Source: Eledone cirrhosa (Eukaryota). Taken from it: a stretch of DNA of 64,000 bases. Positions 32,745 to 63,517 of this stretch are shown piece by piece (the first letter of the stretch is position 1; each line of letters opens with the position of its first letter). The stretch lies in NCBI GenBank assembly GCA_964016885.1, contig OZ024740.1, positions 98,766,001 through 98,830,000 on the forward strand, written 5' to 3'. The notes beneath the pieces were generated by a model, which was not told where the DNA came from, made no database searches, and saw only the letters and a list, made by a program, of their open reading frames with translations. The position numbers and the translations under genes are program-made.

Positions 32745-32892
32745 AATACTTGATTCTTGGGGTAGTAGAGTGTTAATGTAGTAGAGAGTCAGGGTCCGAT
32801 GTTGAGATTTTGCTATTTTGTTAGAAAATTCCAGACTGGAATTTGCTGTGTAAATAGCAAGAGCTCAGCCTTCCAGCCACGACTCTGTACTA
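32745..32892 (-). mobile_element. old copy of the half-hammerhead hairpin family
   Basis: Imperfect palindrome centred on aaattccag-a-ctggaattt; the flank ggggtagtagagtg is the complement of the cactctactaccc tail of the 42.9 and 44.9 kb copies. Confidence 0.55.
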
Positions 32893-33104
32893 TATATATA
32901 TGTTAACCTGTTTAGCTTGCTTCTTTTTTTTGGCTCCGGTGGATTATGGCTTCACGACCACCTCGAAGATTGCGTTTCGTTTTGTTTTTGGCCCGCGCTG
33001 AAATACGATCTCGCTGAAATTATATTTGTATATATATATATATATATATATATATATATATATATATATATCATAAATCATGTCTTTAGAATCATCAGAT
33101 AAAA

Positions 33105-33350
33105 TATATACTATTTCTTCTTCTAATTAGCATAATTAACCATATAAAAATTCAATTATATCAAGCTATAAGAAGAAAGGCTCTTATAGAGAAATCTCCG
33201 ACAAATAACCGAACGTAGTCTCCTCGCGGCGGCCCCGATCGAGTATTTATCCAACATTTCGACAGCATGTAGAAACTGACCAAATATATCATCAACCATA
33301 CACAATTAGGTGTAAAATTAAACTTAGAAGAAATGCGTACCTACCGTAAT
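33105..33350 (+). repeat. unclassified ~250-bp dispersed repeat (copies at 49020-49230 minus and 56287-56550 plus)
   Basis: Shared blocks gctataaga..aaagg, tc.accatacacaattaggt..aaaa..aaa.ttagaa; each copy lies next to (TA)n. Confidence 0.75.
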
Positions 33351-33608
33351 TATATCTCTACTATGGTTTCTTCCTTATTTTTAAAACTAGATGTCTGATT
33401 TTGAGTTTGTCTCCTGATGAATCCTAACTCAGGACATTCCTATTATTTGGATGTGTAAAAATGTATATATATATATATATATATATATATACACACATAT
33501 ATATATATATATATATATATATATATATATATATATATATATATATATATATACATATATTAATGAAAAAGAACCAAAGGAACTATTATGACATTATAAC
33601 AAGTTTAT

Positions 33609-33654
33609 TGCCGACAGCCGTTTCGTCGACCATATGGTGGGTCTTTTCAAGGCA
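33609..33654 (-). ncRNA. hammerhead ribozyme, U3-A8 variant (stem II damaged)
   Basis: Minus strand: tgcc-TTGAAAA-gacccaccatatggtcgac-GAAAC ggct GTC-ggca-ataaa. Confidence 0.6.
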
Positions 33655-59850: not shown

Positions 59851-59854
59851 TATA

Positions 59855-59906
59855 TAGTCTATCAAAGTTCTTTCGTTGCACGTCTGCAACATCATCAGTG
59901 GTACTA
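59855..59906 (-). ncRNA. hammerhead ribozyme
   Basis: Minus strand: tacca-CTGATGA-tgttgca gacg tgcaac-GAAAG aa CTT-tgata. Confidence 0.65.
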
Positions 59907-60790
59907 TTATTATGTTCCCTCCTATTGTATTGTATTGTATTGTAATGTCTATGCCATTTTTATTTTATTTATATATTTACTCTTGCCTCCATCTCTGCAC
60001 ATGTGTTTGCGTGTGTGTATAATGTTTGGTGTGTGTGTTCGCGTTTGGGTGTATGTGTTTTGGTTTTTGTATTCTATCTTTGTTTACTAGTGTGTGTTTA
60101 TATGTGTTTGTTGTTATTTTACTTGTGTATATATTTATTTATTTATATTTCGCTTGAGTCAGTATTGTGTGTTTGGGTGTTGTTGTTATTTCATTCATTT
60201 TTTTCTGTTTAACTTCGGTCTTCTTATTTCTATCTCAGTTGCTTCTCTGATTTGCCTACCTGTAGAATCTATGTTTAGATATTATTTCAATTTCTATGTT
60301 GTCTATGTTACCGTCATGTCTTTGTCTGGCGTGTTCGTATAGTACTGAGCCGTTTTTTTGTCCTTTTAGTTCTCCCCAGAGTTAGTCTCTTGTTTCTCCA
60401 ATGCTTCGAGCTGTCTCACCTATGTATGTCGTTGTCATGTTTCTGCAAGTAACCTCTTTACATCCTATGCTATAGAATACAATTGTAGTTTTACAGTTTA
60501 TCTGGGGGTTCATTTTACAAATAACACATGTCTTATTAGTATAGTGGGTTTTCTTAAAGGGGTATGTTTTGCTGATCACGGATTTTATGGTAGTTCCTGG
60601 CTTTTCTACCACATTAATCTTTAAGTGGGTCTTTCTTAGGGCCCTTCTATATTGGTTAGCTAATTTCACCCCAGGGGTAGCATCCAGGAACATGACATTC
60701 TGGTATCTCTGGTTGTCATACCATGAAGTGGGTTTCCCTATCTTATGTTTAGTCCTATCTAGGCTATTCCATGATTTGTTCCTGAATAAT

Positions 60791-60840
60791 GGTACCACTG
60801 ATGATGTTGCAGATGTGCAACGAAAGAACTTTCATAGACT
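60791..60840 (+). ncRNA. hammerhead ribozyme at the inversion junction
   Basis: tacca-CTGATGA-tgttgca gatg tgcaac-GAAAG aa CTT-tcata. Confidence 0.6.
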
Positions 60841-63517
60841 ATATATATATATTTATATCTGTATTTTTAACCGTTGGTCAATCAATGATAAACGTTGATT
60901 GCCAAACAGATTAACTATGGAGATATAAAAGATACAGAAGCTAAAACCAACCAAACAGTGAGTGTGTTCTGTTATTATTTCTGGCAATATTATTACAACA
61001 ATATGACCCTCCCCAAGTATAACAATATTTGTTTGACACACGATTTCATATAAAAAACCTTGCAAAACAAATATATATATCATCATCATCATCGTTTAAC
61101 GTCTATCTTCCATGCTAGCATGGGTATATATATATATATATATATATATATATGTACATACATACTGCAGATAGCCCACCTTCCCATGTGCATGTGATGA
61201 TCAAATATCAGTCCATTCTGTAAGGTGGTCATGCTAGTGACATATCAAATAAGCACCCAGTTCAACCTGTCTGTTGTTCGTTTTGCTGCCATACTAAAAA
61301 GCACCCTGTCCACACTGTAAATGTGGTTGGCATTAGAAAGGGTATTCACCATTAGCCACAAACAGTGATGATGATGATGACATATATATATATAAACTCA
61401 CACACAAATATACATAGTTGATAGTATATATGCATATTCATGAATATACATATATTTCTGAGTTGGTATATTTTTATACATATTATGTAAGGATGTACAT
61501 GTGTGTGAAAATGTAGAGAAAGTGTTGGGTGTTTTATTGATTATATTAGACTAGAGTTAAGTTAAATTAATTCTATTTCTATTGGAACCAAATAAATATC
61601 TCCTGCCTGCAATATAGTTGTTTAAGTGACAGAATTTAAAACAAGACATGCTTGAAAACATTTCAACTCAATTAGAAATTTAAATTTTTCTATGAAATAC
61701 AAAATACATTTTGTGATGAATGGGATGCTGTGGAGCATAAGTAAAAATAAGTACATTGATATGTTATATGCATACAAATACATGTAGCAATCTTTCTCTA
61801 TCTCTCCCCTCTAAATACATACATACATATATATATATATGTATATATATATATATGTATTATATATATGTACATATATATGTTGTAATATATCATCATC
61901 ATCATTTAACATCTGTGTTTATATGTGTGTTTGTATATATAAAGAGAGAGATAGAGAGAAAGTGTGTGTGTGTGTGTGTGTGTTGAGGGGCTGAACTTGG
62001 AGAGTCATTTGTGTATTGGATGAAATACCTTGTGATATTTGTTCTGAGATCAAATCCAGCAAAGTTCACATTTATTTCACATCCTCTCCATTTATATATG
62101 AATGTATCTATTTGGCTATATGTATTTATACATATGTACCCTACATATATATATATGTATGCACATATATATATACATATACACACACATATATGTGTGT
62201 GTGTGTAGTTAGATTATAGTTATATTGTTATGGGTAGATGCATTTACATTTAGATTTATTTTGAGTGTATCTACATGAAAAGCCCACATCAATGTGAGTA
62301 ATGTGTTAATGTGAAGAATTTGGGTGTATGAATGTGTGTGTGTGTGCGTTTGTGTACGTGTGCGTGTTTGTTTGTGTTGCTGATTATAACATAACAAAGA
62401 GACAAATATATTTCTACATCTATAATAAAAATGGCTAAAAGTGATTTGCATTACAATCGATTTCATTGTTATAATTCCATATGGGAAAATGAAGTTTATG
62501 AATGCCATATGTAATTTATGACAATATAACTCTATATAAACTAAATTAAACATAACTTTTACAATAAAAGCTATTTAGGGATTTGATATCCTTTGGGAAA
62601 TTATGAAAAATATTGTGAATATAAATTGTGCCAACTATTGAGTATATTCAATGATCTAACGGTCAAATTCTTTTAATCACATGTATCTTAAATAGAAGCA
62701 TTTCATCCCCACCCATCTTCTGCTGTGATTTGCTTAACTGAATGATATGTTACTTGTTTTTACTATCCTTGTGGTTAACAGTATCGTTGTTAATGTTGAT
62801 GTAGTTTTATTGTTTGTATTGTTTCGCTTTTATATATTTTTTTGTTTTGTTTTGTCATTTGTTATTTTATTTCAATTGTATTTTTAAATCTGAAATCTAA
62901 ATCCTGTACATTATGAGAGAGAACAAAAGCAGAAACAGAGATTGAATACTTAAACGAAATGTGAGAAAGTTCTAAATAAATTTTAAACATTGATAATTAT
63001 GATTCAAAATCAAATTATGATGTATTATTCTATTTTCTTCTTGTTAATATTCATCAAGTTTGGTCAGTGCTAATAGATTATTAATATTCTATAGTTACAA
63101 ATTAACATGAACTTTCTTCCATGTTCCTTACTTAATAATAAATGCTTGTTTTATGGCTTTATGTAATAAATACACTAAACATGAAGGACTCATATGCTGT
63201 GAATAGATTCAATATAATATTCATTATTAATATTGACTGTTTTCCTCAAACTTTTGCTGACATTACAAGCTTTTCAAAACAATAATAATGTGGTGATATG
63301 TTTGCTTATATATAGATTTAATTAAGACTAATTAAAAAGTAGGTAGATGTAAACAACTCTAATATGTAAATAAGGGAGTGGAGGAATGTTAATGTGCAGA
63401 TTAGGCTAACGACAAGATGTAAAAGAAACGATAAAAAAAAGTGGAAATGAATTGGGTGCAGGATGTATTTGCAACGTGTTAATGTAGTTATATGGGAAAT
63501 ATATAAAAACGTGTATT

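Follow-up and report, generated by a model that had tools for sequence, protein, structure and literature searches.

Paired Fixed Ends of Penelope-Like Element Insertions in Eledone cirrhosa Suggest Probable Twin Priming of One RNA

Introduction

Penelope-like elements (PLEs) are retroelements that form the sister group of telomerase reverse transcriptases (RTs). The origin of their inverted repeats and one-sided tail is called unresolved in PMC8557442 and PMC11167929. Here we analyze PLE insertions in a 64,000-nt stretch of the Eledone cirrhosa genome (GenBank assembly GCA_964016885.1, contig OZ024740.1, positions 98,766,001 to 98,830,000 of the forward strand; hereafter the window), together with related copies elsewhere in the genome.

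Among the endonuclease-containing (EN+) PLEs, Pen2a_Av carries inverted pseudo-long terminal repeats (pLTRs) with a one-sided tail, for which self-priming was inferred (PMC3846280), and Penelope has an internal promoter (PMC2377424). In vitro, the anole element Poseidon (PAc) cuts and extends both strands of the target, starts at two sites that bound the tail, and is predicted to form a dimer (PMC11167929). Pairs of hammerhead ribozymes (HHRs) on opposite strands, 100–700 bp apart, have been noted, and a U3-A8 variant of the ribozyme was described (PMC4209133). A first-pass annotation of the window had listed twelve hairpins and had proposed, as possibly undescribed, that the nascent cDNA primes itself, by preference at ribozyme stems; self-priming had already been inferred in 2013 from head-to-head palindromic junctions (PMC3846280).

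Results

Insertions Combine Two Fixed Ends

Eleven of the twelve listed structures are head-to-head PLE insertions into (TA)n, comprising Hydra- and Neptune-type elements and their short relatives. The twelfth, at approximately 56095, faces inward and does not belong to them (family G, below). The window comes from an AT-rich genome of 3.0 Gb, and its positions 32700–61100 form a cluster of (TA)n runs dense in repeats. Self-BLAST of the window returned inverted duplications at 33557–37055/38946–42640 (arms 92–97% identical), 42871–42984, 43124–43345, 44837–44959, 45301–46638, 47123–48544, 52130–52183, 53516–53555, 55242–55368, 56013–56193 and 58825–59911/60785–61028, recovering 10 of the 11 listed centers and the junction at 60790, while minus-strand matches were absent from all five locally shuffled windows. 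The remaining center, 32833, has diverged beyond the reach of self-BLAST (37/68 identical), but it matches hairpin copies of the family found at 42926. The arms of the long pairs are 83–97% identical, and their flanks show no mirroring.

For each family, more than 1,400 first-look candidates are present in the genome. Copies end in (TA)n at either of two positions, the end of the pLTR (N) or the end of the tail (T), with T lying 42–105 nt beyond N; arms are named here by the position at which they end. N and T are shown by sequence comparison to be internal sites of a putative tandem transcript (pLTR, leader, open reading frame [ORF]), each with a short TA match, because the tail of family A continues 63 nt into the beginning of the ORF in 19/19 other copies that contain an ORF start. 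Read-through copies of families C, D, and E support the same tandem pLTR-leader layout.

The two ends are paired almost without exception. Exact end-motif matches of family A number 170 for N and 339 for T. On contigs C1 and C2 (56 N and 99 T ends listed), all 27 outward pairs within 12 kb combine one N with one T; 24 of these are independent, and approximately 10 T+T pairs would be expected (P about 1e-8). Family A as a whole gave 49 N+T pairs, one N+N and no T+T, after exclusion of same-locus duplicates (L002, L019, L052, L042, L043), pairs whose far end was not visible (L016, L018, L021, L030), and two cases of cryptic ends (L079, L097). For family E, 60 consecutive matches on contig C1 were taken and the 10 that read through into the leader were dropped; the 50 true T ends have 27 N partners, 2 T partners and one cryptic partner. 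An earlier family E set added 16 N+T pairs, with one locus shared between the sets. The same pairing was found in family B (11 N+T), family C (26 N+T and one T+T of 30, with 24 N+T and one T+T in an incidental set), family D (17 N+T, one N+N) and family F (17 of 30 N+T, with 16 more in an incidental set). Summed by hand over the six families, approximately 200 of approximately 206 two-armed insertions are N+T and six are not; T+T accounts for 4 of approximately 206. In family A, an estimated 56% of the T ends and 66% of the N ends belong to such pairs, as do no fewer than 30 of the 50 consecutive T ends in family E, so that the impression that fold-back ends dominate was roughly right.

In the window, the outward orientation of the 3′ ends and their position in (TA)n, as first annotated, hold for 11 of the 12 structures; they do not apply to 56095, and the outer end of the short arm at 53535 does not lie in (TA)n. 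A tail on one arm, which the annotation had called frequent, is present in 8 of 11 (not at 45928, 52156, or 53535).

The Families Are Penelope-Like Elements and Short Relatives

The coding families have the architecture of EN+ PLEs, with a single ORF in which the RT is followed by a C-terminal GIY-YIG endonuclease (order in the ORF, YRDD/YVDD motifs), and they form partial tandems with pLTRs in which the tail is the start of the next unit. The assignment to Hydra and Neptune types is based on motifs. Families A and E have the motifs of the Hydra clade, namely a CxCX5C linker, no CCHH, and CxxC ahead of a conserved E. The CxH motif (flanking a conserved N) was found in family A and not in the one family E copy that was read; DKT is present in 8/8 family A copies, and RWR replaces RWK. 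Neptune-type motifs, a CX2-5CxxC linker and CCHH in the endonuclease, were found in family B and in the element at 51375–52156 (translations of L089 and L114). Pfam RT families gave no matches to six ORF pieces, and the Pfam GIY-YIG domain matched only one of six proteins (51767–52237), with no match for the family A pieces or for 53460–54215.

A predicted type I hammerhead is located in the pLTR of families A, B, D, and E, as called with a custom descriptor, and of family C, as seen in unfolded copies; a scan of the whole window with Rfam at the gathering threshold gave no matches. The first-pass view of hammerhead-bearing PLE insertions across unrelated families is upheld. Family D is a tandem non-coding unit with a type I HHR, as in non-LTR retrozymes. 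Families C and F are short copies without an ORF in the stretches read; a reading of these as miniature inverted-repeat transposable elements (MITEs) or Helitrons was rejected, as their junctions vary and unfolded and tandem copies exist.

Family A contains a predicted intron, with a donor-like site between N and T (window positions 42685–42700) and an acceptor-like site just before the ATG, spaced 130–131 nt apart in 8/8 copies examined (loci L212–L229). Because the donor-like site lies between N and T, the T site and its hairpin (see below) would fall inside this intron.

Many Junctions Do Not Follow Snap-Back Geometry

In snap-back, the arm that carries the unpaired center is the first cDNA and the template, and the partner arm holds nothing extra. 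Among the 49 family A pairs, the center lies on the T arm in 19 and on the N arm in 10, the arms are near-equal in 7, and the T arm is tail only in 13; 23/49 thus have the center on the N arm or a tail-only T arm. The consecutive set of family E (n = 27) comprises 6 T-long, 7 equal, and 14 N-long pairs, and 14/16 pairs of the earlier set have the center on the N arm or a T arm reduced to the tail. N-long pairs make up 9/17 in family D (8 T-long), 14/24 in family C (10 equal, none T-long) and 9/16 in family F (4 T-long, 3 equal), and the three largest pairs in the window (38000, 47845, and 60790) are all N-long. A second arm contained within the first, with a loop of at least 3 nt on the first arm, is therefore lacking in about half of the pairs. 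An inverted segment absent from the other arm, as twin priming would leave, was found in the 13/49 tail-only family A pairs, at L079 and at 52156. Many junctions have loops of 0–2 nt, at which snap-back could not prime, including zero-loop centers at L065, L126, L317, L352, and L366; others have overlaps of 0–7 nt or short insertions. Because the tail-less arm often carries the center and T arms are often the tail alone, snap-back is not the general rule, and with T+T pairs also rare, its proposal as the general mechanism does not stand.

A share of the T arms also stops at a particular place. In family A, 6/25 T arms start within N-5..N+3, against 0.6 expected (P = 2e-5, for an interval picked after seeing the data), and the pile-up at N is repeated in family E (5/16, P = 0.004). 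T arms that stop at N would be expected if an RT primed at T ran into a hybrid already primed from N along the same RNA, but not from random deletion. For 31 pairs of family A compared at 42 diagnostic columns, an arm's partner is on average nearer than 89% of the arms from foreign loci, and such shared subfamily alleles would fit a single template RNA.

The 16-bp case at 53535 is a true snap-back, and represents a minor route. At this position of the RT ORF, related copies naturally form a 7-bp stem closed by an 8-nt loop, and the inverted duplication extends this stem by approximately 9 nt.

Arm Starts, Ribozymes, and Site Hairpins

Inversion points had been expected to be enriched at the ribozyme. 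Turn-arounds do cluster at the hammerhead in the short families C and F and, among the five families tested (A, C, D, E, and F), only there. In family C, 23/24 N-arm starts fall within 24 nt in loop II/stem II, where some edges may reflect subfamily divergence, and in family F 17/32 starts fall within 32 nt around the core. In family A, the 48-nt hammerhead holds 8 starts and the 274 nt flanking it hold 27 (P = 0.14), and in family D 4/36 lie in the hammerhead against 3.4 expected (P = 0.44), with a cluster of starts approximately 100 nt upstream. In family E only 7/54 are in the hammerhead, and 22/54 fall in 6 nt, located 66–70 nt upstream of the core and used by both arms. The T starts of family B are spread over approximately 1340–1480 of 1691. 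In the family D unit, 8/36 arm starts fall at positions 87–115 (P = 0.002), which are rich in GC and directly follow the T site, and not at the hammerhead.

About seven turn-arounds in the window had been placed in or beside hammerheads. Those at 32833, 42926, 43278, 44898, 45928, 55304, and 60790 do lie at hammerhead-like folds, but four of them come from one family group, and the turn-arounds at 38945, 47845, 52156, and 53535 are approximately 0.6–3.6 kb from their hammerheads.

As the sharp stop of family E is common to both arms, its simplest reading is the 5′ end of the RNA, which we consider likely. In families C and F the arm stop may be an RNA end or a structure-induced stall, which are indistinguishable here. 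Because the arms run through the hammerhead cleavage site, the template RNA would be uncleaved. A cap-templated G at the family E stop was considered and set aside as too weak (7/15 non-natural bases are G, of which 3 are clearly untemplated). The untemplated G precedes the stop in three arms (L314, L351, and L365) and may be a copied cap, a weak observation.

Both N and T are followed in families A, C, E, and F by a candidate hairpin, RCTC 4–5 nt past the site and then GAGY, which is the commonest read-through sequence after N in these families. The motif was found, with denominators that include unrelated flanks, in 30/49 non-TA contexts after N and 8/23 after T in family A, 28/49 and 1/2 in family C, 8/18 and 1/7 in family E, and 15/35 and 1/7 in family F. 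The background is 28/6422 TA sites in the window.

Elements in the Window

The largest pair belongs to family A (Hydra-type). Its long tail-less N arm (33557..38945, minus strand) contains a broken ORF from near its start, a long 3′ untranslated region (UTR) and the pLTR; the ORF encodes the RT, the CxCX5C linker, and a GIY-YIG-like C-terminus (36367–37212), and the unpaired center is 37056–38945. In the short T arm (38946..42745, plus strand) the pLTR ends at 42640 (N site), followed by a tail (42641–42745) that is the element's own 5′ leader, and a type I hammerhead with a U3/A8 core was identified by the descriptor at 42547..42585 (plus strand). Elsewhere in the genome, locus L106 has three family A pieces of equal length (approximately 210 nt) in one orientation within 4.6 kb, which begin just upstream of the hammerhead.

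Three family C mini-hairpins are present: 42871..43061 (plus; N arm left, T arm right; center approximately 42926, in hammerhead loop II), 43140..43328 (minus; T arm left, N arm right; center approximately 43278) and 44837..45037 (plus; N arm left, T arm right; center approximately 44898). An old, diverged hairpin related to family C lies at 32715..32890, with the T arm left, the N arm right and the center at approximately 32833. The family F mini-hairpin (55242..55455, plus; N arm left, T arm right) has its center at approximately 55304, in stem II of a hammerhead-like fold. The core of this fold is non-canonical (CAGAAGA, CUU) and does not satisfy the descriptor; its three-way layout was seen by eye, and the minimum-energy fold recovers only part of it.

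Family D, a 435-bp tandem unit with a hammerhead, occupies 45318..46618 as two tail-less arms with cores at 46370 (plus) and 45567 (minus). At its junction, 45928, the right arm begins inside the hammerhead core, and this is the sole N+N among the 18 family D pairs. The 3′ end of the Hydra-type family E is found at 47038..48537, with the T arm left and the N arm, which carries a 36-nt center, right; the junction is at approximately 47835, and the descriptor located hammerheads at 48437 (plus) and 47230 (minus).

An N-ended 3′ end of a Neptune-type PLE is located at 51375..52240 (minus; GIY-YIG, Pfam PF01541, E = 5.7e-5). Its short inverted arm (52155–52190) exceeds the long arm by approximately 4 nt in the 5′ direction and terminates at an internal TA-like GTATA, a putative cryptic second priming site as judged from one related copy. 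At the outer end of this arm a 20-nt unit is repeated three times, imperfectly (52190–52240), resembling repeated re-priming or later slippage.

Family B (Neptune-type) is present twice. A T-ended copy (53516..55180, plus) bears the 16-bp inverted duplication at 53516–53555 and a hammerhead at 54899. It cuts, at 53516, a separate repeat family at 53150–53516 that is unbroken in L276, L028, and L117. In the second copy a long tail-less arm (58825..60790, minus) is split at an internal (TA)n by the 3′ end of a long interspersed nuclear element (LINE; 59010–59850), and the short T arm (60791..61070, plus) begins approximately 8–12 nt upstream of the hammerhead core. The LINE 3′ end (plus) has a tail resembling a short interspersed nuclear element (SINE), with related pieces at 7146–7409, 11312–12061, and 17201–17558.

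Outside the pattern, two family G copies (55470..56195) have fixed TA-anchored ends that face each other at approximately 56095. A fold-back was rejected here, as the fixed end points inward on both arms and the arms are 50/74 identical. No hammerhead was found in family G with the descriptor, so its polarity rests on the fixed end, at which 19/19 other copies begin. The unit is approximately 600 bp, with one end fixed at (TA)n, and occurs in tandem at loci L300 and L302.

Further TA-anchored, related repeats lie at 33070–33460, 48560–49240, and 56240–56540, with CTGATGA motifs at 33416 and 48937, and their relatives form inverted pairs at loci L117, L120, L014, and L174. Beyond the 32745–61070 cluster, the window contains a 45-bp palindrome about a TA run (17095–17139) beside a SINE-like tail, and, in successive frames, pieces of ORFs for a Gypsy-type RT, RNase H, and integrase (28110–30429, plus).

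Discussion

We propose that the N+T mirror insertions arise by priming of reverse transcription from both cut target strands, at two fixed positions inside one RNA, followed by end-to-end joining of the resulting pair of cDNAs, a reading of the sequence comparisons to which we give a probability of roughly 0.72. The GIY-YIG domain would nick both target strands, and two RT subunits would dock on the two hairpins. The T-primed RT may stall at the N-primed hybrid, which would yield a tail-only arm and, like L1 twin priming, an inversion that duplicates nothing; alternatively, it may displace that hybrid and produce duplicated arms. When priming occurs in the upstream pLTR, both cDNAs would run off the shared 5′ end of the RNA and leave short, near-perfect hairpins. 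Host end-joining, with 0–7 nt of microhomology or small insertions, would then close the center.

Several points weigh against this proposal. Families B and D lack the RCTC…GAGY motif and show the same N+T pairing, and the T-site hairpin of families C, E, and F rests on 1 to 3 read-through copies each. In family B 9/11 pairs are T-long, from a query biased to long T arms. Arm starts no more than 20 nt apart are enriched (7 vs. 1.1 expected), which short-loop snap-back would also give, and the alleles shared between arms may stem in part from gene conversion or from RNAs of the same source. Arm starts are BLAST edges, accurate to a few nt, and target site duplications are unreadable in ends within (TA)n. 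Finally, PMC11167929 reports no difference between strands in the start site, which alone does not yield strict N+T pairing.

The excess of near-equal starts would also be accommodated if two primers set the outer ends and, in a share of the insertions, the longer cDNA snaps back and is copied into a sense strand that meets the second, short cDNA at its complementary end. This would explain both that excess (13 vs. 3.5 for starts no more than 60 nt apart) and duplicated arms without strand displacement, and snap-back is present at 53535 and documented for R2 insertions (PMC11371274). Offsets between the starts fall about equally on both arms when small, and tail-only arms joined to a distant point (13/49 in family A) or zero-loop centers could not be produced in this way. 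Since it still needs two primers and differs from twin priming in the joining step only, we regard it as an unlikely, though not negligible, variant.

A separate RNA molecule copied from each nick, as proposed for L1 (PMC2837659), would give head-to-head arms of independent length, and the discordant pairs L080 and L084, whose arms differ at 10–14 diagnostic sites, agree with it. Under this explanation about half of the events should be T+T or N+N, T arms should not stall at N and stop points should be uncoupled, and most arms share subfamily alleles; we consider it improbable.

The single-primer explanation, in which the cDNA primes itself, with a preference for ribozyme stems, and a TA-compatible end is restored by the second strand, has a precedent in the proposal of PMC3846280. 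It fits 53535 and the hot spots that families C and F show in the hammerhead region, and the geometry of T-long pairs (19/49 in A, 6/27 in E) would allow it. A second strand that runs to the target predicts T+T pairs, which are rare, no family C junction shown keeps the natural register of stem II, and the ribozyme enrichment is absent from A, D, and E. About half of the pairs have the center on the tail-less arm or a tail-only arm, and the N-long pairs contradict it unless each underwent a later central deletion, so that we consider it hardly tenable.

Central deletions are invoked generally if hairpins were inherited from palindromic master copies, or formed as long snap-back palindromes, whose junctions later moved. 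Long palindromes are unstable, and a few junctions recur (L129/L143, L121/L137, L317/L352/L366). Within one subfamily, however, most copies have junctions of their own, deletions at random would not stop at N in 6/25 and 5/16 cases, and young family E copies, with arms 95–99% alike, are already N-long, which makes this explanation very improbable indeed.

Library or assembly chimeras can be dismissed, as the arms differ by 3–17%, the two sides end at different family-specific points, the flanks lack mirror symmetry and a LINE later inserted into the left arm of the 60790 pair, although public reads tried at two window junctions (60400–61070 and 38875–39015; RAD-seq reads and collapsed contigs of other samples, in which the natural leader and the N and T ends appear at the level of the family) neither bridged nor excluded these junctions.

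A broader version of the twin-priming proposal is more speculative. Twin priming might be the normal, programmed mode of PLE integration, with an RT-endonuclease dimer on two copies of the hairpin, one subunit per nicked strand. Every insertion would then be born as two cDNAs, one tailed and one untailed, and short hairpins would be run-offs to the transcription start. In family A, the second docking site would lie in the predicted intron, so that only unspliced RNA would be mobilized, which, if true, would explain the retention of introns in PLEs. We hold this model to be possible but doubtful. The question of how PLEs come by inverted repeats and a one-sided tail becomes directly testable in the existing in vitro system, given the N+T pairing, the T arms that stop at N and the hairpins at both sites. 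Twin-primed insertions would also explain TA-rich regions full of palindromes that resemble MITEs or assembly errors.

Comparison With Known Systems

The head-to-head layout and the proposal of self-priming are known. A literature search for twin priming proposed for PLEs found none; the 2005 and 2006 PLE reviews and the supplements were outside this search, and start-site pairing may be touched on in Figures S1–S2 of PMC11167929 or in the supplementary material of PMC8557442.

As in the insertions described here, Pen2a_Av (PMC3846280), the elements in the legend of Figure 2 of PMC8557442 and D. virilis Penelope (PMC2377424) have a head-to-head, inverted, 5′-truncated copy with the tail usually at one end. 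These elements likewise share partial tandems, targets that are AT-rich or (TA)n, and a hammerhead in the pLTR. The papers on them credit the junction to self-priming (on an antisense template) or the tail to resolution by the endonuclease, whereas here N+T pairing is near-obligatory, tails are 42–105 nt and two primers are indicated. With the Hydra clade (PMC8557442), families A and E share the C-terminal endonuclease, the CxCX5C linker, CxxC before the conserved E, the lack of CCHH, (TA)n targeting and the hammerhead, and family A also DKT and CxH; in this motif-based comparison family A differs in RWR for RWK and in a 3′ UTR of approximately 2.8 kb.

Family D resembles the non-LTR retrozymes and minimal PLE hammerheads (PMC4209133; bioRxiv 10.64898/2026.07.22.740005) in its 435-bp tandem unit, type I hammerhead and palindromic stem III, and differs from them in that its insertions have the two N+T arms typical of the coding PLEs. 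The U3-A8 core of PMC4209133 recurs in the hammerheads of A and C. The short inverted copy on a natural stem joined to unrelated flank at 53535 is like the snap-back at R2 5′ junctions (PMC11371274), and such cases are a small minority here.

PAc shares with the families studied here internal initiation at two sites that bound the tail and the use of uncleaved RNA. Its start sites lie inside the ORF and without homology to the target, whereas here they lie in the leader, each with a short TA match, and the main text of the PAc paper (PMC11167929) does not tie two-strand extension to inverted insertions. In L1 twin or dual priming, as described in PMC2837659, a second nick likewise primes an internal site of the RNA, giving an inversion with a deletion or small duplication and microhomology at the junction. 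L1 twin priming is occasional and uses opportunistic sites, whereas in these PLEs it would apparently be the main route, at a fixed site and often with long duplicated arms.

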